From the NCBI GenBank assembly GCA_018061145.1, contig JAGOUR010000001.1, forward strand, positions 875 through 64,874: DNA of 64,000 nucleotides. Direction: 5' to 3'. Positions 20,029 to 46,541 of this stretch are shown in pieces (position 1 is the first letter of the stretch; each line of letters starts with the position of its first letter). Under the pieces are notes generated by a model that was not told the DNA's origin, did no database searches, and was given only the letters and a program-made list of their open reading frames with translations. The stretch comes from Minisyncoccota bacterium. Its GTDB lineage: Bacteria; Patescibacteriota; Minisyncoccia; Phycocordibacterales; UBA9973. The translations under genes and the position numbers were made by a program.

Positions 20029-20973
20029 ATGCAAAAAAAATTTATTAAAAAGTACGCACTCTTAGCCATTTTTGGTTTAATGTTTTATTCTGGAGTAGTG
20101 AATGCAGAAGAAAATTCAACATCCTCAAATGATGACTCTCAGAAAAGCGAAGTTGAGGTAGAACATGCTGATGGTGAGGATATAGATGATATGAATGACG
20201 ATCGCCTAAGATTTAAGGGAAAGATAGAAGACAGAAAAATACAATTTGAACAAAAGGCAGAGGATCGAAAAATCAAAATGGAAGAAAAGAAGGTTAATTT
20301 TGATAAAAAGATAGAAGATAGAAAAATAAAAATTACAGAGAAAGCAGGAGAGAAAAAAGTCGAGATAGAAGCAAAGAGGGAAGAGATGTTGAAAAATGTC
20401 CTAGAAAAGAGAAAGGAGTTTGAGGTAAAGAAAGAAGAGATGAAGACAGAGATGAAAGCCAAAGCCGAAGCAGCAAAAGAAGCGCTGAAAAAATCACTAG
20501 GTGCGATAAAAGACGAGAAGAAAAAAGCTTCAGTTGAAAATATTGCAAACATAATAGATAATGCAAATAAGAATACTGGCACACGATTTACGAATACTGT
20601 CAATAGTGTTGAAAATGTATTAGTTTCTATTAAGTCTAGATCAGAAAAAGTTGGGGCTACTGGCGCAGACACTACACTTGCTCTAGCTGAGATAGCAAAA
20701 GCAGAGACTCTCATATCTGATGCTCGCACAGCTATATCTACTCAGTCAGCAAAAGTTTACACTATAGATATCACAGATCCTACAAAAGCCAAAGAAACCA
20801 TGAAGTCTACTCGTGACACCTTCAATGCAGACATAAAAGCTGTCCAAGAAAAGGTAAAGCTAGCTCGTGATGGAGTAAAGAAAGCAGCAGATGTCCTAAA
20901 GAAGACAACACCAAAACAAGCCCCAGCAACAGCACCCGCTACAACAGAAGCTACAGTAAACACAACAAATTAA
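20029..20973 (+). CDS. Secreted low-complexity repeat protein (K/E-rich, KIEDRKIK repeats)
   Basis: Signal peptide ending VVNA-EE, 11-residue KxEDRKIK repeats, PATAPATTEAT tail. Confidence 0.5.
   Translation: MQKKFIKKYALLAIFGLMFYSGVVNAEENSTSSNDDSQKSEVEVEHADGEDIDDMNDDRLRFKGKIEDRKIQFEQKAEDRKIKMEEKKVNFDKKIEDRKIKITEKAGEKKVEIEAKREEMLKNVLEKRKEFEVKKEEMKTEMKAKAEAAKEALKKSLGAIKDEKKKASVENIANIIDNANKNTGTRFTNTVNSVENVLVSIKSRSEKVGATGADTTLALAEIAKAETLISDARTAISTQSAKVYTIDITDPTKAKETMKSTRDTFNADIKAVQEKVKLARDGVKKAADVLKKTTPKQAPATAPATTEATVNTTN
20215..20370 (+). repeat. Approximately 33-nt imperfect tandem repeats inside the coding sequence
   Basis: Repeated agatagaagacagaaaaat(a/c)aaa units encoding KIEDRKIx; not a CRISPR array (no conserved spacer-repeat architecture). 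Confidence 0.6.
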
Positions 20974-24812: not shown

Positions 24813-25256
24813 CTATTTGTTTATTATTTGAATTTTGCACTCCCCTATTTCGTCACCTTTTTTAATCTTAAAAGAATGACTTCCCAATTCTTTTATTGGA
24901 TTCGGTATGACGATAGAATGATCGTCTACAATATTACCAGTTTTTTCTTTTATTAATTTTACGAGATCTTTTGGGGAAACAGCAGAAAATAGGTGTCCTT
25001 TTTCATTTGCTTTTATGGTCAATGATAGTGATTCATTATTTATCTTGTCTACCATACTATGGAATATAGCCACTTCTTCATCGTGCTTTTTCTGCATAGA
25101 TTTTTTCTTGCTCTCTACTACAGCTATAGCATTGGGAGTAGCGAGCTCCGCTAGGCCTTTTGCTATTAAGACATTGCGAGCGTATCCATCTGCAAATTCT
25201 TTAATATCATATTTTTTACCAATCTTTTGTATGTCTGCCAATAATATAACTTTCAT
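24813..25256 (-). CDS. rplI: 50S ribosomal protein L9
   Basis: MKVILLADIQKIGKKYDIKEFADGYARNVLI N-terminal domain. Confidence 0.85.
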   Translation of the reverse strand: MKVILLADIQKIGKKYDIKEFADGYARNVLIAKGLAELATPNAIAVVESKKKSMQKKHDEEVAIFHSMVDKINNESLSLTIKANEKGHLFSAVSPKDLVKLIKEKTGNIVDDHSIVIPNPIKELGSHSFKIKKGDEIGECKIQIINK

Positions 25257-25380
25257 CCCATTAGAAGTAGATAATCTTTAGATTATCGTACATTATTTAA
25301 CTAATAATATCGAATATAAATAATTTTTTTAAATAGACCCCGTAGCTAAAACAACATATATGACTTCTAACGGGATTCAT
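25252..25380 (-). mobile_element. MITE-like element copy A (129 bp including the ATGAA target duplications) inserted at the rplI start codon
   Basis: On the minus strand: ATGAAT-CCCGTTAGAAGT ... CTTCTAATGGG-ATGAAA. Internal gataatc-taaa-gattatc hairpin. Creates a 27-codon mini-ORF MNPVRSHICCF... at 25297-25380. Confidence 0.5.
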
Positions 25381-25418: not shown

Positions 25419-25449
25419 TGAAAAATGAGACTCTGGGAGTCTCATTTTT
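25419..25449 (-). terminator. Rho-independent terminator after ctpA
   Basis: aatgagactc-tgg-gagtctcatt with a flanking T-run on the minus strand. Confidence 0.8.
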
Positions 25450-26676
25450 CTACTTACCTTTTAATATTTCTACTGCTTTTTCTAGCTGAGGATCTTTTTT
25501 GTCCAGTAAATCTTTTTCTGTTATCGGGACTATATGATCCGGAGTCAAACCCTTTTCAGATATTGAATCTCCATTTGGAGTCAACCATCGAGCGACAGTG
25601 ACCTTTAGAGACGTGTCATCTGTGATATCGATGACCTCTTGAACAGAACCTTTACCGAAGGTCTTCTCTCCTACTAGAGTAGCTAATCCATTTTGTTGTA
25701 GGGCGCCGGCAAGGATCTCTGAGGCAGAAGCAGAACCTCCATCTACCAATATCACCAATTTTAATTGATCAGTAAATACTCTTGGGCCACGACTTTTTAT
25801 AACATCAGATTTTCTTTTGTCTCCATAATCTTCAGTAACAATAATTTTTCCAGCATCAAGGAACCAATTTGAAATGTTCACAGCAGAATCAAGATATCCA
25901 CCGGGATTGCCTCGCAGGTCTACCACCAATTTGTTGTATCCTGTCTTACTAAAATCCAACAATGCTTTCCTAAAAAGTTCAGCTGAATTCTCAGAGAAGC
26001 TATATAGACTGATGACAAAGACACCATCATCGCGAGCCTCGGTATCGATAGTAGGTATCTCTATCGTGTCACGAGTTATAGATATGTCTCGTGAAGTTTT
26101 TTCTCCCTTACGGTAAATATTTAGATTAACAACTGTACCCTTTTCTCCTCGAATCAGACTTATAGCTTTGTCGACAGTCATATCTGTAGTATCAGTCTTG
26201 CCTATCTTCAATATCTTGTCTCCTGATTTCAGCCCAGCTCTAAATGCGGGTGAATCTTTCAATGGGGCAACTATCGTCAAAATCTTATCTTTTATACTAA
26301 TCTCAGCTCCGATTCCGCCAAACGAACCATGAATACTATCATTGAATAACTTACTCTCTTCGGGTGGGAAAAATACTGTATATGGATCTCCTAGCGAAGA
26401 TGCTAGTCCTTGGACTGCGCCCCACACCTTTTCTTGATCTGTTTTTTTGTTTGCATAGATAGATTTTTCATTTATCTTTTGCCATACTTTCCAAAAAGGA
26501 GCAAAATCTGCATTCGTAGATACCGTGGAGTCTGTAGAGTTTGTAATATTTATTATAGGCACTGGCTCTGGCTGATTTTTATTGCCGAGAAAGTATCCAC
26601 CAGCAAAAACACCTACTATCAAAATAACAGAAGTAGCGATAAATAAATATTTTTGTTTAAAATTTATTTGTACCAT
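25450..26676 (-). CDS. ctpA: Carboxyl-terminal processing protease (S41)
   Basis: PDZ segment plus S41 motif LVILVDGGSASASEILAGALQ; N-terminal TM. Confidence 0.85.
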   Translation of the reverse strand: MVQINFKQKYLFIATSVILIVGVFAGGYFLGNKNQPEPVPIINITNSTDSTVSTNADFAPFWKVWQKINEKSIYANKKTDQEKVWGAVQGLASSLGDPYTVFFPPEESKLFNDSIHGSFGGIGAEISIKDKILTIVAPLKDSPAFRAGLKSGDKILKIGKTDTTDMTVDKAISLIRGEKGTVVNLNIYRKGEKTSRDISITRDTIEIPTIDTEARDDGVFVISLYSFSENSAELFRKALLDFSKTGYNKLVVDLRGNPGGYLDSAVNISNWFLDAGKIIVTEDYGDKRKSDVIKSRGPRVFTDQLKLVILVDGGSASASEILAGALQQNGLATLVGEKTFGKGSVQEVIDITDDTSLKVTVARWLTPNGDSISEKGLTPDHIVPITEKDLLDKKDPQLEKAVEILKGK

Positions 26677-32237: not shown

Positions 32238-32720
32238 ATGAACAAGAAAAGAACTTGGTCTGAAACACAACTTAAAGATGCAGTTAAATCTTCTAAGAGT
32301 TACAGAAATGTGATTAGTCTTTTGGGGTTAAGGCCTACTGGTGGAAATTATGATCAAGTAAAGAAATATATTAATCAATATGGTTTTTCAACTAAACATT
32401 TTACTGGGAAAGTCTGGAATAAAGGATTAAAATTCCCCGATCGGAATTATATAGAATTAAAAGACATTCTTGTTCTAAATAGCACCTACCAAAGTCATAA
32501 GTTGAAAAAAAGACTGTTTTCGGTTAAACTAAAAGAACCTAAATGTGAAGAATGCGGCTGGGCCAGAATATCTCCAGATGGTAGACTTCCTTTGGAATTA
32601 GACCATATTAATGGAAATAGGCATGATAACAGGATAGATAATTTAAGAATTTTATGTCCGAACTGTCACAGCATGCAATCAACACATAGAGGTAAAAACA
32701 GAAAAGCCCGAGTGGTGTAA
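32238..32720 (+). CDS. HNH endonuclease (homing-endonuclease-like)
   Basis: C-terminal HINGNRHDNRIDNLRILCPNCHSMQ HNH motif. The 3' end overlaps the tRNA-Leu by 15 nt. Confidence 0.7.
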   Translation: MNKKRTWSETQLKDAVKSSKSYRNVISLLGLRPTGGNYDQVKKYINQYGFSTKHFTGKVWNKGLKFPDRNYIELKDILVLNSTYQSHKLKKRLFSVKLKEPKCEECGWARISPDGRLPLELDHINGNRHDNRIDNLRILCPNCHSMQSTHRGKNRKARVV

Positions 32721-32789
32721 TTGGTAGCCACGAGAGACTTAAAATTTCTTGTCATTTATGACGTGCGGGTTCGACCCCCGCCTCGGGCA
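32706..32789 (+). tRNA. tRNA-Leu (anticodon TAA)
   Basis: Manual fold: 7-bp acceptor GCCCGAG/CTCGGGC. U8. D-loop AATTGGTAG. Anticodon stem AGAGA/TTTCT with loop CT-TAA-AA. Long variable arm GTCAT-TTAT-ATGAC. T-arm GCGGG-TTCGACC-CCCGC. Discriminator A. Confidence 0.8.
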
Positions 32790-36090: not shown

Positions 36091-37218
36091 TTAAGCTTCA
36101 TGAGCAAGGGCCATATCTATCGCCTCTTGGGCTATCTTTGTAGCTGCGTCTGGAGTAGAGAAAGCTTTTGCTTTTTCTTTCATCTGATTCAACCTATCTG
36201 TATTATTCATGAGCTTGTCGATCTCGGCTACGAGTACATGTGGTGTTAGATTTGCTTCTTCTAGTACATCACAAGCTCCAGCTCGAGCATAAGAGAATGC
36301 ATTCTTCCTCTGGTGATCACCATTTGAATTTGTGATCGGTATGATGATAGATGGCACACCCCAAGCTGCAATCTCGAATATCGTAGACCCTGCACGAGAG
36401 ATGACTAGTGTCGCTGCGCCTGCAGCCATCTTTGTAGTTAGATTGTTCAGATATGGATACACTATGTAGCGAGCTTTATATGGATTCTTTTCTAGCATCA
36501 AATCAGAGCGCAATTTTACTTCTTCAAAATTCTTTGGACCAGCCTGATGTATAATCTGATACTTTGATATCAGATCTGGCAATGCCTCGATCAATGTACT
36601 GTTTATGATTTCTGCACCCTGTGACCCGCCTACTACAAATATAGTCTGCACATCACGACTGAGTTTAAAGAATTCAAACATGCCAGTAGTCGCAGCAGCA
36701 GATACTTCGCGTCGGACAGGCTGACCCACCCATGCAGTTTTATCTTTGGGGAATTGCTCACCTGCCTCTGGATATGACACAGCGATACGCTTTGCGAATT
36801 TTGAAGCCCAAAGATTCAATCGTCCAGCGCTAGAATCTGATTCATGTACGATCACGGGTATGCGCAAAATCTTTGCTGCAAATACAGCTGGGAATGAAGC
36901 ATATCCACCCTTTGATATAACTACATCAGGATATATAGAGAAGAGTCTAATCAAGCCATAGAATAGACCAGTAGCAGTTTTGAATAAATCCAAGAAATTC
37001 AAGATAGATGAGTATGTGCGCATCTTGCCTGCAGGCACTCCTACAAATTCGATATTATTCTCAAAAAGCATCCTTTTATCATAAGGTGCATCGGACATAT
37101 AGTATAGCTTTACGTCTAGTATTTTCTCTTTATCTACAAGTTTATTTATCTCTTCGGCGATAGCGATGAGCGGATAAAAATGACCACCTGTACCACCCCC
37201 TGTCAACAATATTTTCAT
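36091..37218 (-). CDS. murG: Undecaprenyldiphospho-muramoylpentapeptide beta-N-acetylglucosaminyltransferase MurG
   Basis: MKILLTGGGTGGHFYPLIAIAEE N-terminus. Confidence 0.9.
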   Translation of the reverse strand: MKILLTGGGTGGHFYPLIAIAEEINKLVDKEKILDVKLYYMSDAPYDKRMLFENNIEFVGVPAGKMRTYSSILNFLDLFKTATGLFYGLIRLFSIYPDVVISKGGYASFPAVFAAKILRIPVIVHESDSSAGRLNLWASKFAKRIAVSYPEAGEQFPKDKTAWVGQPVRREVSAAATTGMFEFFKLSRDVQTIFVVGGSQGAEIINSTLIEALPDLISKYQIIHQAGPKNFEEVKLRSDLMLEKNPYKARYIVYPYLNNLTTKMAAGAATLVISRAGSTIFEIAAWGVPSIIIPITNSNGDHQRKNAFSYARAGACDVLEEANLTPHVLVAEIDKLMNNTDRLNQMKEKAKAFSTPDAATKIAQEAIDMALAHEA

Positions 37219-37254: not shown

Positions 37255-38358
37255 TTAGGCAGTTTTCTTTTGTTCTCGTGAGATATTCAAGATTATTCCG
37301 ATGATACCGATAGCTAGGAGTAGGTTCGTACCACCATGAGATACGAAAACAAGTGGAACTCCCGTGAGTGGGAATACTCCGATGATCGATGCGATATTCA
37401 TAAATGATTGAGCAGTGAATAGAGTGATGATACCGATAGTAAATATTTTACTAAAAGAGTCTGGCGAATAGTATGCGATTTTATATCCACGCAAAGCAAA
37501 AGCTACAAAAAGGAATATGAGTAAAGTAGAACCGATGAACCCTACTTCTTCACCTATGACTGCAAATATAGAGTCCCCTTGTGGTTCAGGCAAGTAATTG
37601 AATTTCTGTATACTCTGACCCAGGCCTCTACCAGCCACACCACCCGATCCCAGGGCGATCAGAGATTGCTGGAGCTGATACGAAGATCCGGATGGATCAT
37701 ACGATGGGTCCATAAAAGTTTTTACTCGCTCGAGAAGATATGGCTTTGTCATGACTAGTCCACCAAAAGCGAGCATCGCCACCATAACCATCATCAATAT
37801 ATATTTCCACGGCATACCAGACACGAATAGCATAACCAATGCAGTCGCAGACATGAGAATCAGACTCTTTGTATCAGGCTGATTTATCAAGATAGTAGCG
37901 ATCAGTCCGAGTAGTACCACTAGTGGTAGTACGCTCCACCTCCAATCAGAAACCTTTGTCTTCACCCATGATAGCCAGGCAGAAAAATAAATAACAAAAG
38001 CAATCTTAAGAAATTCCACAGGCTGAAAAGACAATCCGAATACATTGATCCAGCGTCTAGCACCTCCATGAGAGAATCCCACATGTGGCACAAAGACCAG
38101 ACAAGTCAGCACGATAGCCCCGATAAATATATATAGTGAGTATGCCCTCCAGAATTTATACGGAATCTTCATAGTAAAAAACATAGCCACCAATCCACCA
38201 AGTAGTCCAAAGACAAATTGATTGAACATGACTCCGTAGAATTTCGCTTCATTCTTGGCAAGTATCCCCAGAGATGAAGATGTAAACATAACAGCCCCCA
38301 CCACTATGAGGGCTACAACTATACCAAAAAATACTTTGTCGATGTGTTTTGTTTTCAT
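37255..38358 (-). CDS. ftsW: Cell division protein FtsW (SEDS family)
   Basis: 10-TM FtsW/RodA/SpoVE pattern; sits between mraY and murG. Confidence 0.8.
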   Translation of the reverse strand: MKTKHIDKVFFGIVVALIVVGAVMFTSSSLGILAKNEAKFYGVMFNQFVFGLLGGLVAMFFTMKIPYKFWRAYSLYIFIGAIVLTCLVFVPHVGFSHGGARRWINVFGLSFQPVEFLKIAFVIYFSAWLSWVKTKVSDWRWSVLPLVVLLGLIATILINQPDTKSLILMSATALVMLFVSGMPWKYILMMVMVAMLAFGGLVMTKPYLLERVKTFMDPSYDPSGSSYQLQQSLIALGSGGVAGRGLGQSIQKFNYLPEPQGDSIFAVIGEEVGFIGSTLLIFLFVAFALRGYKIAYYSPDSFSKIFTIGIITLFTAQSFMNIASIIGVFPLTGVPLVFVSHGGTNLLLAIGIIGIILNISREQKKTA

Positions 38359-38480
38359 CCCGTTAGAGATAGGAAATGTTTACATTTCCGTATATTTTTA
38401 ATTTCTAGTAAATAATACGACTTTATTTTTTAAACAACCGTAGTTAGAGATAAAACAAACGCATCTCTAACGGGATTCAT
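38354..38480 (-). mobile_element. MITE-like element copy B (127 bp including the ATGAA target duplications) inserted at the ftsW start codon
   Basis: On the minus strand: ATGAAT-CCCGTTAGAGAT ... ATCTCTAACGGG-ATGAAA. Perfect 12-bp inverted repeats. Internal ggaaatgt-aaa-catttcc hairpin (38372-38389). Mini-ORF MNPVRDAFVLSLTTVV at 38430-38480, beginning 2 nt after the mraY stop codon. Confidence 0.55.
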
Positions 38481-38482
38481 AT

Positions 38483-39532
38483 CTAACTTACGAGATACAA
38501 TATGACACCCAAGATAGAAGTGATAATACTCACCACCCAGTACCTCATAACAACTTTGTATTTAGGCCAACCGAGAGCTTCAAAGTGGTGATGCAATGGT
38601 GCAAATAAAAATACTTTTTTACCATTTCTAAATTTACGAGAAATCATCTGTATAATCACAGATAGTGAAGTCATAAACAGAGGGAATGCAATAATTGGTA
38701 ACAATAGAACAGTATCTGTTAAAAATGCAATGACAGACAATGTGACAGTCAGACCCATCATGCCAGTCTCACCCATATAAAAACGCGCAGGCGGTATATT
38801 GAACCAGAGAAATGCAAGTATCCCCCCAGTGACCACAGCACAAAAAGCCGCTAAATCTATCTGCCCATTAAATAACGATATAAATGTATAAGCAGCAAAA
38901 ATAGATGCCAGTACTCCACCAGAGAGTCCATCGATACCATCGATCACACTACCGGACCACACTGCGATCATAACAAATATAAAAACTGGTATAAATAAAA
39001 ATCCAAGTTCTATAAATCCATAGCTCGGTATATACAGAGAGCTGATCCCTAGCTTGCTATAGAACCACCAGCTAATGATCACTCCTAATACTAAAATTAT
39101 AGACAACTTTATAAAACGTAAAATGATTGGATCTTTTCTCCAGACACCTCTACCGAATATCTGTATAAAATCGTCTCCCAACCCTACTAGGGACGCTACA
39201 ATCAAAGTGAACAATGGCAATATAGTCTGCCCACGAGAGATAAAGTACATCTTCTCTGTCCAGAGAGAATTGTAAGAAATATTTAAAATAAGAAATATAA
39301 AAATAGTAAACAATACAGACATCCACACAACCATACCCCCTGTACGAGGAGTAGACAATTCGGCTACACCATCATGGATATTTTGGAATTCACCTTTTGG
39401 TACATTTTCATTGCGAGAAGTATTCTTCCACATTTTATATTTAAAAAAATAATGAGTCAGAATTGGTGTCAAAAAAATACCTGAGATAAAAGATATCGTA
39501 GCCGGTAATAATATTTTTATTGCATTAGTCAT
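38483..39532 (-). CDS. mraY: Phospho-N-acetylmuramoyl-pentapeptide transferase MraY
   Basis: 10-TM MraY pattern and conserved DD motifs (GDDFIQ, SVIDGIDGL). Confidence 0.9.
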   Translation of the reverse strand: MTNAIKILLPATISFISGIFLTPILTHYFFKYKMWKNTSRNENVPKGEFQNIHDGVAELSTPRTGGMVVWMSVLFTIFIFLILNISYNSLWTEKMYFISRGQTILPLFTLIVASLVGLGDDFIQIFGRGVWRKDPIILRFIKLSIILVLGVIISWWFYSKLGISSLYIPSYGFIELGFLFIPVFIFVMIAVWSGSVIDGIDGLSGGVLASIFAAYTFISLFNGQIDLAAFCAVVTGGILAFLWFNIPPARFYMGETGMMGLTVTLSVIAFLTDTVLLLPIIAFPLFMTSLSVIIQMISRKFRNGKKVFLFAPLHHHFEALGWPKYKVVMRYWVVSIITSILGVILYLVS

Positions 39533-42333: not shown

Positions 42334-42546
42334 TTAATGTATATATTGAGGAATCTGTTCACACGGATATCCTACGATAAAGGTCAATGCTACGAGTATC
42401 CAGTAAAATGGAGCAAAAGCAAAATAGATAATCTTGTCTTTTTTCCACATCGGCAGATACCACGCCTGAACTTTCATAAATAGCATAGACAAAGGTATGT
42501 TTATGACATTTAAAAGTATCAGCACAATACTAAGGAAGAATTTCAT
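42334..42546 (-). CDS. Small two-TM membrane protein
   Basis: 70-aa hydrophobic ORF immediately downstream of MITE-like element copy C. Confidence 0.3.
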   Translation of the reverse strand: MKFFLSIVLILLNVINIPLSMLFMKVQAWYLPMWKKDKIIYFAFAPFYWILVALTFIVGYPCEQIPQYIH

Positions 42547-42668
42547 CCCGCTTAGAAGCAGATCGCGATCAGCTCGCTTTTTTGCTTGATTATATTAATA
42601 ATATTTTTAAAGCTTTTTTCCATATTTTTGTTTTTTAAATTGCGATCGCGGCTTCTAACGGGATTCAT
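42542..42668 (-). mobile_element. MITE-like element copy C (127 bp) inserted at the start codon of the small membrane protein
   Basis: On the minus strand: ATGAAT-CCCGTTAGAAGC ... CTTCTAAGCGGG-ATGAAA. The interior is unrelated to copies B and D but carries two GCGATCGC palindromes near its ends. Mini-ORF MNPVRSRDRNLKN... (38 aa) at 42552-42668. Confidence 0.5.
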
Positions 42669-43711: not shown

Positions 43712-44257
43712 CTAACTAAGCGTTATGCTTAATTTTTCCTGAATCTTGCTTGTAATCTGTTCCTCGCAATATTCATTAAAGTTTGTACATGCTTTTTTTA
43801 TTGTATCCAAAGTCTCTTCATTTGAAACTTTTTCAAACAATAGATCAGAAAATGAATCTACAATAAATGACAAACAGTCATAATCATCCCTATCTTCTGC
43901 TAAAACTTTATACATTTCTGAAAGCTGAGCAAATGATTGTTTTTTAAGATAATTATTCACAGCCTCGCTTCTTCTCGAAAATAATTCATTACTATTCTCA
44001 CTCAAATCACGATAACAACCATGAATTAATGAAAACAAATTTGAATATTTATCGTCGTCACTAGCAAGATCAGACTGATATTTATCCATCAGTATTTCCC
44101 TGAAGAATAAGATTAACTCCTTATCTTTCTGTGACACATACAATGATTCAATTTGCCTAGTTTTTAAACTTTTGAATGCAACAGCAAGCTGCTCGTCAAC
44201 AAAAGAATCTTTTATCTCAGACTCTTCTGGAATAATCATTTTATCAATTAGTACCAT
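43712..44257 (-). CDS. Hypothetical acidic protein
   Basis: Intact 181-aa ORF; no motif. Confidence 0.3.
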   Translation of the reverse strand: MVLIDKMIIPEESEIKDSFVDEQLAVAFKSLKTRQIESLYVSQKDKELILFFREILMDKYQSDLASDDDKYSNLFSLIHGCYRDLSENSNELFSRRSEAVNNYLKKQSFAQLSEMYKVLAEDRDDYDCLSFIVDSFSDLLFEKVSNEETLDTIKKACTNFNEYCEEQITSKIQEKLSITLS

Positions 44258-44388: not shown

Positions 44389-45795
44389 ATGGCTATCAAA
44401 AAAGAAAATCTCAGAGTCCCCCCACAGAGTGTGGATTCAGAAAAAGCAGTCCTCGGATCTATCATGCTCCGACCTGGTGCAATACACGAAATCACAGATA
44501 TTATAAACAGTGATTCTTTTTATGCTGGCAAGCATTCTCAAATTTGGAATATCATGAATGAGCTCTCTGCAAAGGGCGAGCCTATCGATCTGATTTCTGT
44601 ATCACATAGACTAGGAGAAAAAGGCATGATCGATCAGGTGGGTGGTATCGGATATCTATCTGAATTGACCAATGCAGTCCCCGCTTCTACAAACATCCGC
44701 CACTATGCAGATATAGTAAATAAAAAGCACGTACTCCGAAAAGTCATCGAGGCTGGATCAGATATTTCCGAGCTCGGTTTCAAAGAAGACATCGAGGATA
44801 TCCTAGATGTAGTGAACCAGGCAGAGAAGCGCATCATGGGAGTAGGTGGATTCTCAAAAGGAAAAACATTTCAATCTCTAAAGGAGTCCCTACCCGAGGC
44901 TTGGGAGCGTCTTGAAAAGCTCCACGAGAATCGTGGTATGCTCCGCGGTGTACCTACAGGATTCCGTGATTTGGACAACCTACTTTCTGGTTTTCAAAAG
45001 TCTGACCTCGTAATCCTCGCGGCTCGTCCATCTGTCGGTAAGACAGCTTTTGCTCTGAACATCGCCCGTCATGCCGCATCAAAGCACCAGATACCTACAG
45101 TCATCTTCTCACTAGAAATGGGAACGCAGCAGCTAGTAGATAGAATGCTCGCCGCTGATGCAAATGTGAATGCATGGAATCTAAGAACTGGAAATATCTC
45201 AGCAGAGAGTGAATTTTCAAAGATTCGCGACTCCCTAGACAAGCTAGCCAAGGCTCCGATCTTTATCGATGATATCGCCGGTAACACTATCGGCCGTATG
45301 CGCTCTGTATGCCGTCGTGTGCACGCCGAGCATGGCATAGGACTGATACTAGTGGACTACCTACAGCTGATGTCTACATCAAAGAGCTATGACAATATGG
45401 TGAACCAAGTGACTGAGATATCTCACTCTCTCAAGGCTCTCGCTAAAGAATTCGACGTGCCAGTCATCGCCCTATCACAGCTATCTCGTGCGGTGGAACA
45501 GCGTGGAGGCAAGCCTCGTCTGTCTGACCTCCGTGACTCTGGATCCATCGAGCAGGACGCCGACGTCGTGATGTTCATCCACCGCGAAGACAAGGGCAAG
45601 GATGAGAGTGAGCGTACAAATATCGCCGAGATACTAGTGGAAAAACACCGTAATGGACCAGTGGGTCATGTACAGCTATACTTTGATGATAAACTCGGAG
45701 CGTTCCTAGACCTTGAAAAAGGTAATCTAAATGGTTTTGCAGCAATGGCAAATTCTCAAATATCATCACCTCAAAATGGATTGGATGGATTTTAG
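44389..45795 (+). CDS. dnaB: Replicative DNA helicase DnaB
   Basis: Walker A ARPSVGKTAF, DYLQLM and SQLSR motifs; N-terminal DnaB domain. Confidence 0.9.
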   Translation: MAIKKENLRVPPQSVDSEKAVLGSIMLRPGAIHEITDIINSDSFYAGKHSQIWNIMNELSAKGEPIDLISVSHRLGEKGMIDQVGGIGYLSELTNAVPASTNIRHYADIVNKKHVLRKVIEAGSDISELGFKEDIEDILDVVNQAEKRIMGVGGFSKGKTFQSLKESLPEAWERLEKLHENRGMLRGVPTGFRDLDNLLSGFQKSDLVILAARPSVGKTAFALNIARHAASKHQIPTVIFSLEMGTQQLVDRMLAADANVNAWNLRTGNISAESEFSKIRDSLDKLAKAPIFIDDIAGNTIGRMRSVCRRVHAEHGIGLILVDYLQLMSTSKSYDNMVNQVTEISHSLKALAKEFDVPVIALSQLSRAVEQRGGKPRLSDLRDSGSIEQDADVVMFIHREDKGKDESERTNIAEILVEKHRNGPVGHVQLYFDDKLGAFLDLEKGNLNGFAAMANSQISSPQNGLDGF

Positions 45796-45809: not shown

Positions 45810-45937
45810 ATGAATCCCGTTAGAGATGTGCTTGTCATATTTCTAACATTAGTTGGTACATAAAATAAAGTCGTATTATTTACTAGAAATTAAAAAAATA
45901 CGGTAATGTAAACATTACCTATCTCTAACGGGATGAA
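45810..45937 (+). mobile_element. MITE-like element copy D (128 bp including the ATGAA target duplications) inserted at the recR start codon
   Basis: ATGAAT-CCCGTTAGAGAT(45816-45827) ... ATCTCTAACGGG(45921-45932)-ATGAAC. Internal ggtaatgt-aaa-cattacc hairpin (45902-45919). Mini-ORF MNPVRDVLVIFLTLVGT at 45810-45863. The interior is about 85% identical to copy B. Confidence 0.55.
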
Positions 45938-46541
45938 CCAAATAGAAATACTCGCACAACTTTTCAAGGAATTCCCAGGTATTGGCGAAAGACAAGCCAA
46001 GCGTTTTGTGTATTTTCTATTGCACAAAAATCCTACATATATCCGAGAGCTCAGTGATGCGATAGTCGCAGTCAAAAATACAATAAAGCAATGCCCATCC
46101 TGCTATCTATTCTTTCAGTCTGAGCGCGATAGTCTGTGTGATACTTGCCGTGATCCAAAGACGGATCATACTTCCCTGCTAATCATCGAAAAAGATGCAG
46201 ATCACGAGAGCATTAAAAAGAGCAAGAATTATAGTGGTATGTATTTCATCCTAGGCGGATTGATACCGATCGTCACCAAAGACACACCGAACTTTGTCCG
46301 AGTGAACGAACTGATGCGAGTGATTGAGAATAGATTCAAGAATGAAGGTCTAAAAGAAATCATCATTGCCCTATCGCTAAATCCTCAAGGCGAGAATACT
46401 GACACATATATTCGTGAATTACTAAATAGTTATGATGGCAAGATAAAGATATCGAGCCTGGGCCGTGGACTATCCACAGGATCCGAGCTCGAATATGCCG
46501 ACAGTGAGACAATAAAAAACGCCCTACGCAATCGTTCCTGA
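45933..46541 (+). CDS. recR: Recombination protein RecR
   Basis: N-terminal FPGIGERQAKRFVYFLL HhH motif, C4 zinc finger CPSC...CDTC, Toprim domain. Confidence 0.9.
   Translation: MNQIEILAQLFKEFPGIGERQAKRFVYFLLHKNPTYIRELSDAIVAVKNTIKQCPSCYLFFQSERDSLCDTCRDPKTDHTSLLIIEKDADHESIKKSKNYSGMYFILGGLIPIVTKDTPNFVRVNELMRVIENRFKNEGLKEIIIALSLNPQGENTDTYIRELLNSYDGKIKISSLGRGLSTGSELEYADSETIKNALRNRS

Follow-up and report, generated by a model that had tools for sequence, protein, structure and literature searches.

Four copies of a short element abut gene starts

The window analyzed here is a stretch of 64,000 nucleotides (nt) from a Minisyncoccota bacterium (assembly GCA_018061145.1, contig JAGOUR010000001.1, positions 875 to 64,874 of the forward strand), and coordinates refer to it unless another locus is named. 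BLASTN and pattern searches identified four related copies of a short element in this window, copies A, B and C on the minus strand and copy D on the plus strand. They are located between mraY and ftsW (B), dnaB and recR (D), an S41 protease gene and rplI (A), and trpS and a 70 amino acid (aa) open reading frame (ORF) (C). On the strand of the neighboring genes, every one of the four is organized as follows: ATGAAT, CCCGTTAGA-nnn, an interior of about 95 nt, n'n'n'-TCTAACGGG and then the ATG of the next ORF, the 3' repeat being present as the variants TCTAATGGG in A and TCTAAGCGGG in C. Each copy is closed by a helix of 12 base pairs (bp), P1, with ATGAA at both sides, and is abutted by the host start codon. 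Between the flanking repeats the copies measure 116–118 nt; they contain only remnants of a nuclease N-terminus and no complete mobility ORF.

Copy B occupies positions 38359–38480 (minus strand; BLASTN and pattern search). It begins with the upstream start-codon motif ATGAAT (38475–38480), located 2 nt past the mraY stop codon TAG (38483–38485), and continues with the 5' terminal inverted repeat CCCGTTAGA-GAT (38463–38474), which is the 5' strand of P1 and consists of nine invariant and three covarying bases (134 copies). The interior is a decayed remnant of the N-terminal third of a GIY-YIG nuclease gene (38390–38462), recognized by colinearity in a MAFFT alignment and by TBLASTN. It is followed by a hairpin, P3 (38372–38389), a single linker T (38371) and the 3' terminal inverted repeat ATC-TCTAACGGG (38359–38370), which is the 3' strand of P1 and includes an invariant TAA. 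The start codon of ftsW (38356–38358; ORF 37255–38358) abuts this repeat. The frame opened by the first ATG of B reads MNPVRDAFVLSLTTVV and then stops, and the remnant found by TBLASTN runs from MNPVRD to IRK where full-length copies of the element (see below) run from MNPVRD to LRK.

Copy D (45810–45932, plus strand; same searches) has the same anatomy: ATGAAT (45810–45815), 14 nt past the stop codon of dnaB, whose ORF ends at 45795; the 5' terminal inverted repeat CCCGTTAGAGAT (45816–45827); a remnant of the nuclease N-terminal coding region (45828–45901; TBLASTN and MAFFT) that reads MNPVRDVLVIFLTLV where intact nucleases have MNPVRDYIVIFYTYI; hairpin P3 (45902–45919); the linker T (45920); the 3' terminal inverted repeat ATCTCTAACGGG (45921–45932); and, directly abutting, the recR start codon (45933–45935; ORF 45933–46541).

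B and D form an inverted pair. The reverse complement of 38354–38480 (minus) aligns with 45810–45937 (plus) in 128 columns with one gap, and by BLASTN the two are 87.8% identical over 131 nt (E=1e-42), in agreement with the approximately 85% stated in an earlier reading of the window made from the letters alone (the sequence-only reading). The identity is uneven, 96% in the gene-proximal 76 nt and 78% in the distal 58 nt. Hairpin P3 is GGAAATG-TAAA-CATTTCC in B and GGTAATG-TAAA-CATTACC in D, so the two differ by a single compensated swap, the third pair being A-T in B and T-A in D, exactly as that reading had described. The T-A stem variant of D is also present in the orthologous copy of a relative, L124. 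An equivalent hairpin of different sequence had been reported for copy A and was found there as GATAATC-TAAA-GATTATC (25270–25287, minus). The hairpin had been drawn with 8 bp and a loop of 3 nt; the hairpin itself stands, and its stem has 7 bp and its loop 4 nt.

Pairing is conserved in a family of elements before unrelated genes

To describe the family, the pattern ATGAATCCCGTTAGA-N(90–120)-GGGATG was searched in contigs representing one genome per species. It matched at least 120 loci, compared to about eight expected by chance according to our own estimate. The matches come from Parcu-, Sacchari-, Kaiser-, Wolfe-, Levy-, Kerfeld-, Nomura-, Zambryski- and Moranbacteria, other Patescibacteria, and a few metagenome-assembled genomes of Omnitrophota and Sedimentisphaerales. 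Viral carriage is near nil, with one match in 2.9 million viral contigs. The FtsW and MurG proteins of the window are 55–61% identical to their counterparts in Nomurabacteria and Paceibacterota, which places the window among the Patescibacteria.

The position of the element is highly uniform. Among 141 elements (the listed loci and the window copies), 124 abut the ATG of an ORF of at least 60 aa, and the orientation is always the same. In an independent set all 12 elements abut ORFs of at least 178 aa, 11 of them with an ATG at this place. The host genes are unrelated housekeeping genes: ftsW, recR, rplI, murG, dnaB, asnS, rpmE, smpB and others.

P1 has exactly 12 bp, nine invariant pairs and three covarying ones, and the element tips (T and A) are complementary as well. 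Covarying triplets include GAT/ATC, AGC/GCT, AAT/ATT, GGC/GCC, GAC/GTC and CCT/AGG. The positions of P1 are paired in 99% of cases across 134 copies, and in 99.4% in an alignment of 33 copies described below. Two more pairs (T...A and A...T) could be formed by the flanking bases, using the A and U of the host AUG. P3 adjoins the 3' strand of P1 after the single T. In A, B and D it forms a local hairpin, whereas in C it is a long-range helix that begins 3 nt past P1.

Covariation was analyzed in an alignment of 33 hairpin-type copies, which were chosen for having the hairpin. RNAalifold independently predicts both P1 and P3 in this alignment, with ten pairs changed on both sides. Changes on both sides were seen at six of the seven hairpin pairs, and 98% of the cells are paired; 92 cells carry double changes vs. 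31 ± 4.4 in shuffled alignments, none of 500 shuffles reaching the observed number. When the partner columns are slid, pairing falls to 38–48%. In the set not selected for the hairpin, 38 of 134 elements have a perfect hairpin of at least 6 bp at exactly the expected position (0.7 in shuffled controls). These 38 hairpins use 24 stem sequences, with GG...CC at the base as the sole preference, and local P3 stems almost always show perfect Watson-Crick pairing. Hence compensatory changes maintain the pairing of both helices throughout the family. As the sequence varies while the pairing stays, the hairpin is under constraint; the sequence-only reading, which had argued for selection on the pairing, named covariation across more copies as the check and random, uncompensated substitutions in the arms as the outcome against it, and the opposite of the latter was observed.

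The parent is a single-gene element encoding a GIY-YIG nuclease

Full-length copies with ends identical to those of the short copies were found among end pairs spaced 200–400 nt apart: one of 275 nt (L102), one of 278 nt (L101) and a third located upstream of ftsW (L007). No autonomous element with the same ends at a spacing of 0.3–6 kb was found among the first 120 loci. The full-length element of about 280 nt consists of one ORF, in frame with the first ATG, which encodes a GIY-YIG nuclease of 93–95 aa belonging to the UPF0213 family. The ORF of L102 reads MNPVRDDEYYYVYVL...LYTGYTNDLRKRL...ARSREQYLKSGMGKRFLKNRLKRFLSLTG, and its stop codon is the TGA of an ATGA overlapping the host start codon. 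The terminal inverted repeats have 12–13 bp, T-CCCGTTAGA-RRY ... RYY-TCTAACGGG-A. The 5' repeat (CCCGTTAGA-GAT in copy B) encodes residues 3–6 (PVRD) in full-length elements, and both the start (MNPVR) and the end (SLTG) of the nuclease are encoded by the inverted repeats. The nine invariant bases of P1 never vary, even where a change would be synonymous in the ORF.

The Pfam domain GIY-YIG (PF01541) matches the ORFs with E-values of 1.2e-16 and 9.8e-17, above the curated cut-off. Among solved structures, those of the UPF0213 proteins BH0048 (1ZG2, 7e-10) and EF2693 (1YWL) are nearest; a weak match to SLX1 was also observed, and the protein consists of the catalytic domain only. A protein search yielded at least 2296 homologues; the best 120 are nearly all 86–95 aa long, come from Patescibacteria and carry the names 'GIY-YIG nuclease family protein' or 'putative endonuclease'. 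The homologues examined start with MNPVR and end with SLTG, and residues Y13, Y24, G26, R32, H38, E58 and N84 are invariant in 39 sequences.

Five further full-length copies were looked up. All five share 4 nt with the start codon of the downstream gene, and in some the stop codon of the upstream gene is overlapped as well; they were found between genes for a methyltransferase and a glycosyltransferase, Ham1 and a 67-aa ORF, MurJ-like and Bac_transf proteins, argS and smpB, and two ABC proteins. The insertion sites of full-length copies, including that at ftsW, share only about 5 nt, and the element is not confined to one cognate site. Since the nuclease ORF is bounded by the repeats that encode its ends and occurs in five unrelated neighborhoods, the mobile unit is taken to be the nuclease ORF itself. 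One database protein (P0118) is such a nuclease with an N-terminal extension that ends in TVSNG and appears to be read through an upstream miniature.

In full-length copies P3 is a long-range inverted repeat of 13–15 bp, ACGGAAACGnnTTAAG paired with CTTAAnnCGTTTCCT, which encodes LRKRL and LKRFL, respectively, and shows compensatory differences between copies (GCC/GGC, GTT/AAC and GAC/GTC). The MAFFT alignment matches B, D and further miniatures of the hairpin type to the full-length element along its first ~100 nt and its last ~30 nt, the single gap being the ~160 nt between the P3 arms; the hairpin thus consists of the arms of the internal inverted repeat, joined by a deletion. B and D are full-length elements without these ~160 nt, the arms remaining as the 7-bp hairpin. 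We regard the identity and the origin of the hairpin as well supported.

Insertions are lineage-specific and probably duplicate the start-codon motif

At the junction of mraY and ftsW, the element was found in two of 80 loci of FtsW relatives (58–100% identity), both from the lineage of the window itself (L123, 100%; L124, 98%). The other 78 junctions are empty, for example TAATGAAAAAA or TAGATGAAAAAA, and B is therefore a lineage-specific insertion. Vice versa, L124 carries additional copies at three gene starts that are empty in the window: asnS (L124:6032–6148; window equivalent ~42329), where the host ATG reads AAG; a murC-like gene (L124:13505–13621; ~36081), where the upstream motif is AGGTCT instead of ATGAAT; and dnaB (L124:4519–4637; ~44389). 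The last region also differs in gene content: an ORF of 181 aa without a Pfam match (43712–44257, minus) is missing from L124, which has in its place ~190 nt with an A-like element abutting the dnaB start, and this ORF may be an inserted or a deleted gene.

Copies are sparse among relatives: 890 kb contained only 12, most of them confined to a few genomes. A single gene start holds three different subfamilies in three genomes (L153, L155 and L157). The comparison of close relatives indicates that insertions are lineage-specific and differ even between them. B, D and two copies present only in L124 agree in their remnant, deletion and loop and are 83–88% identical at unrelated loci; the miniature itself has therefore been copied to new sites. 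The orthologous D copies of the window and L124 are 88% identical; 14 of 118 aligned positions differ, all of them in the middle.

A direct repeat, usually TGAA, is present on both sides of the element, and across the family the host gene's first bases recur in the left motif. Most copies track these bases, as seen in the left and host motif pairs ATGAG/ATGAG, ATGGA/ATGGA, ATGCG/ATGCG and ATGG-T/ATGGC. In three types of cases the repeat can be seen to follow the first base of the start codon: left GTGAAT and right ATGAA; left ATGAAC and right GTGAA, with tips C...G; and left ATGA-T and right ATGAGC. They argue that the purine at the 3' tip of the element rebuilds ATG or GTG. Taken together, the sequences point to a host ATG or GTG rebuilt from this purine and the repeated TG, with the nuclease stop codon TGA overlapping the rebuilt start (ATGA). 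In B, ATGAAT is accordingly best read as the old ftsW start (A and the duplicated TGAA) followed by the element tip T.

Three copies lie at TTGA(C) direct repeats instead of ATGAA (L100:832–881, L104:864–962 and L002:7482–7575), suggesting TGA as the core of the target. In L100 and L104 the right-hand TTGAC(A/G) precedes a -10-like box by 17–18 nt, and these insertions look like ones that split and rebuilt a -35 box. Tandem head-to-tail pairs sharing one ATGAAT were found at four loci (L039:5466–5713, L008, L065 and L005), a pattern that would arise if the start-codon motif restored by an older copy served as the target of a new one.

Transcription and translation of the host genes

As the element is positioned between co-oriented genes, it is probably part of the ftsW and recR mRNAs. 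The TGA stop codon of the upstream gene lies inside the left ATGAAT at 17 loci. At many other loci a -10 box is located 6–9 nt upstream of the element, and in empty orthologues the same box directly precedes the ATG, suggesting that these genes are leaderless. A -10 box 6–8 nt before the ATG, e.g. TATACTaatactATG, was also seen in many genes, among them the murG start at 37218 of the window and empty orthologous starts at L089, L117 and L043; leaderless mRNAs seem to be common in this group.

In 51 of 125 copies no stop codon interrupts the frame of the first ATG within the interior, compared to 13 and 16 copies for the other two sense frames. The invariant TAA of the 3' repeat (UAAcgggAUG) terminates 39 of the 51 open frames, and the TGA of AUGA the other 12. 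Of the 28 copies that have their first ATG in the frame of the host gene, not one is open (Fisher p=3e-8), and this complete lack of in-frame fusions argues for use of the upstream AUG. The start codons of ftsW, recR and rplI lie behind a 12–14 bp helix and have no sequence resembling a Shine-Dalgarno motif. A conserved leader peptide was considered and rejected, as the lengths range from 6 to 43 codons and conservation ends after MNPVR. No positional peak of TANNNT or TATAAT-like hexamers was found that would correspond to an internal outward promoter near the 3' end.

Proposed mechanism

We conclude that B and D, together with A and C, are probably non-autonomous derivatives of a very small mobile element of Patescibacteria, similar to miniature inverted-repeat transposable elements (MITEs). 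Since the element is positioned exactly at the start codon with a direct repeat on both sides, the old start codon opens the nuclease ORF. P1 and P3 would act as DNA hairpin or cruciform structures that are recognized by the nuclease of the element, which would move both full-length and miniature copies; recognition of structure would explain why pairing, and not sequence, is conserved. The element would be co-transcribed with the host gene, and ribosomes starting at the upstream ATG would read into it. Where the frame is open, they would stop at the TAA of the 3' repeat or the TGA of ATGA, beside the host ATG, which would allow re-initiation. For the helices we favor recognition at the DNA level during mobilization, because of the perfect P3 stems, the invariant bases of P1 and the membership of the nuclease in a superfamily with structure-specific enzymes; an additional role in RNA is possible.

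A more far-reaching proposal is possible, which we put forward tentatively: the family may represent a new class of transposon, a single-gene element of ~280 bp with a minimal GIY-YIG nuclease acting as the transposase on hairpin or cruciform ends. It would insert after the first base of a start codon, or occasionally into TTGAC -35 boxes, and the ~4 bp duplicated on insertion would restore the interrupted signal. It would borrow the promoter and the initiation signals of the host and pass ribosomes on via the ATGA overlap, and its miniatures would constitute a major unannotated repeat family of Patescibacteria.

Several observations weigh against the main interpretation, that of miniature derivatives of a mobile element. 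We know of no GIY-YIG enzyme that acts as a transposase, the only link between the nuclease and mobility is the sharing of ends, and the window contains no full-length copy, the TBLASTN matches at 59.6–62.7 kb being chance matches inside other ORFs. The direct repeat appears to vary between 3 and 5 nt, and some left flanks are unrelated to it (AGGTCT, ATGTCT, ACTAGT and ACTTGT, the last three times). B and C are identical at 116 of 116 positions between the window and L124 (38359–38474 and 42547–42662), with flanks 73–96% identical, which constraints of mobility at the ends alone do not explain. Mismatches in P1 are G-T in 13 cases and A-C in 12, equally rare, which neither proves a role in DNA nor excludes one in RNA. 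As for translation, the excess of open frames may in part be inherited from the coding ancestor without selection, and in copies B, D and A the upstream frame ends early (at codon 17 in B), so coupling cannot explain the translation of ftsW, recR and rplI.

Alternative explanations

Could the helices act mainly in the mRNA, with ribosomes handed over from the upstream AUG to the host AUG and with pairing selected for host expression rather than mobility? Both AUGs would then stand side by side at the base of the 12–14 bp helix, or the host AUG would be exposed only when the upstream frame is translated. The element is always in sense orientation, has co-oriented genes on both sides or follows closely on a -10 box, and is therefore transcribed; the U-A and A-U pairs extending P1 into the host AUG and the reading-frame statistics, which indicate use of the upstream AUG, agree with such a role, as do the greater conservation of B and C compared to the flanking genes and an orthologous pair (L043 and L117) whose internal stem differs via G-U intermediates on the sense strand. 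We nevertheless consider this unlikely as the main function, since G-U is not in excess over A-C among the P1 mismatches, local P3 stems almost always pair perfectly, the same helices are found within the full-length coding region, where ribosomes would melt them, some copies have no upstream ATG, and a purely structural RNA would not need the invariant 9-bp sequence of P1. A cis-regulatory leader such as a riboswitch, thermometer or attenuator, evolved to control ftsW and recR, is highly improbable. Its resemblance to the element, which has a conserved covarying hairpin immediately 5' of start codons and, like many riboswitch aptamers, ~120 nt with a closing helix, is outweighed by the 78 of 80 orthologous ftsW leaders without the element, which largely refute it, and by the unrelated housekeeping genes downstream, the 88% identity of copies at different loci of one genome, the tandem copies (L039, L008 and L065), the derivation from a nuclease ORF and the lack of a match in Rfam even at E-values up to 10. 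The sequence-only reading had offered such a 5' leader structure as one of two interpretations and is thus partly supported: the constraint on pairing holds, the dedicated leader does not.

Its other interpretation was a palindrome bound by a protein. The hairpin is indeed a perfect inverted repeat in the DNA near gene starts, at some loci near promoters, and the idea may come near the truth if the binder is the nuclease of the element. An operator read by a transcription factor is hardly conceivable, because a repressor that reads sequence would not tolerate 24 stems among 38 hairpins, which excludes sequence-specific binding, the only invariant sequence is that of the terminal repeats ~100 nt apart, and the arms are ~160 nt apart in full-length copies. 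It is also quite improbable that the miniatures never moved, each being an independent full-length insertion that later lost the sequence between the P3 arms, with hairpins that look conserved as the events were recent. Deletion between the arms of an inverted repeat is an easy and recurrent replication error, and different miniature subfamilies do occur at the same gene start in related genomes (L153, L155 and L157). This explanation does not account for the 5' remnant, deletion end-points and loop shared at 83–88% identity by B, D and the two copies of L124 at unrelated loci, for the stem changed on both sides with pairing kept between B and D, or for stems that are perfect family-wide despite greatly diverged interiors.

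Some other candidates suggested by the anatomy were considered and rejected. No supporting feature was seen for a tRNA-like minihelix (5+7 bp), for processing by RNase P or RNase Z, for splicing of the archaeal bulge-helix-bulge type, for a self-cleaving ribozyme or for ribosomal bypassing of the T4 gene 60 type, and these ideas became unnecessary because the coding parent was found. Integron attC sites (RYYYAAC ... GTTRRRY) have AAC/GTT at the inner end of the stem, whereas here, in CCC-GTTAGA ... TCTAAC-GGG, GTT/AAC is at the outer end, and the flanking genes are core housekeeping genes, not cassettes. Ends of the IS1380 or piggyBac-like type (CCC...GGG with a 4-bp duplication) were discarded too, as the gene associated with the element does not encode a DDE transposase.

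Comparison with known systems

MITEs of bacteria such as the Correia elements of Neisseria and RUP of Streptococcus pneumoniae are multicopy elements of ~100–150 nt without ORFs, have terminal inverted repeats and short flanking direct repeats, are co-transcribed with neighboring genes and form long hairpins; each type arose when an autonomous element with the same ends lost its internal part. The window copies share with them the terminal inverted repeats, the absence of a mobility ORF, an autonomous relative with the same ends and a dispersed presence or absence of copies. Unlike in MITEs, the parent is not an insertion sequence (IS) with a DDE transposase but a GIY-YIG element of ~280 nt, whose ORF runs from repeat to repeat; moreover, insertion is at start codons in one orientation, and the ends are identical across phyla.

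Free-standing GIY-YIG homing genes, for instance seg of phage T4, move into the corresponding locus of other genomes, encode a DNA-binding domain and have neither inverted repeats nor duplications. The full-length element resembles them as a small selfish GIY-YIG gene wedged between host genes, overlapping start and stop codons and distributed patchily among relatives. It differs from them by its many unrelated loci, inverted repeats, short duplication, gene-less miniatures and a protein with the catalytic domain only. By sequence, this protein of ~95 aa is a member of UPF0213/COG2827 (YhbQ-like). The characterized members known to us are encoded by ordinary chromosomal genes, their function being unknown or related to repair, and we know of no report of UPF0213 proteins with an MNPVR start and an SLTG end encoded by inverted repeats.

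Two further groups have features in common with the element. The mycobacterial interspersed repetitive units (MIRUs) are tandem minisatellite units in operons of Mycobacterium, whose frames join the upstream stop and the downstream start, and they have no inverted repeats or nuclease parent. Copies with an open frame are likewise intercistronic, with frames that bridge stop and start and would preserve translational coupling, but only ~40% of the copies here keep the frame open. IS200/IS605 with PATE, and REPIN-RAYT, depend on HUH (Y1) transposases; their insertion creates no target duplication, and their hairpins are subterminal. Mobility dependent on hairpins, which we infer for the present element, would be a common feature, along with orientation-specific insertion at a short target, compensated stems and abundant derivatives without a gene. 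In contrast to these systems, the ORF of the element is of the GIY-YIG type, direct repeats flank it and its termini are complementary.

Rfam 15 contains no relevant family; over copy B nothing better than E=1.1 was found, and all matches were far below the gathering score. The literature searched yielded no description of the element, and a GIY-YIG mobile element that targets start codons has apparently not been described. GIY-YIG ORFs have been noted in non-intron insertions of rRNA genes in the candidate phyla radiation, with repeats not mentioned (PMC11270868), and these insertions may be the same element.

The family explains a repeat that breaks assemblies before essential genes in a very large and poorly understood group of bacteria. 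An example is the contig with an identical recR gene (L121, Logan contig SRR11088409_612095), which starts 66 nt upstream of recR, inside copy D, which suggests that the repeat interrupts short-read assemblies. The element also provides a concrete and testable role for minimal GIY-YIG proteins of the UPF0213/YhbQ type, whose structures were solved without a known function; if the nuclease does move the element, it would be a new class of enzyme among transposases. Nature has, moreover, set up an experiment on translation initiation here: ~120 nt of strongly structured RNA, placed exactly at the start codon, are tolerated by essential genes, of which many seem to be leaderless. For annotation, gene callers will misplace starts and call spurious peptides beginning with MNPVR at element sites.

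Copies A and C and other features of the window

Copy A (25257–25380, minus) belongs to a subfamily with AGT/ACT triplets and consists of ATGAAT, CCCGTTAGAAGT, the interior, the hairpin described above and ACTTCTAATGGG, which abuts the rplI start codon (25254–25256). A terminator-like hairpin, gagactcccagagtctc, with a run of T follows the S41 protease gene (25425–25455, minus). After it, an extended -10-like box, TGTTATATT, is located 6 nt before the first ATG of copy A, and rplI may originally have been a leaderless gene.

Copy C (42547–42668, minus) has the same ends and a second architecture, in which the helix adjacent to P1 is long-range, CGCGATCGC being paired with GATCGCGATC. Its first-ATG frame, MNPVRSRDRNLKNKNMEKSFKNIINIIKQKSELIAICF, stays open for 38 codons and is terminated by the TAA in the 3' repeat; the ATG of the 70-aa ORF (42334–42546) lies 5 nt downstream. 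No family match was obtained for this ORF, and no full-length parent of the second architecture was found.

Elsewhere in the window, the sole Rfam match at the gathering score is a single tRNA gene (32706–32789). Imperfect A/G-rich direct repeats of the type AAAGATAGAAGAYAGAAAAAT occur at 20210–20380 with spacings of 33 and 54 nt.

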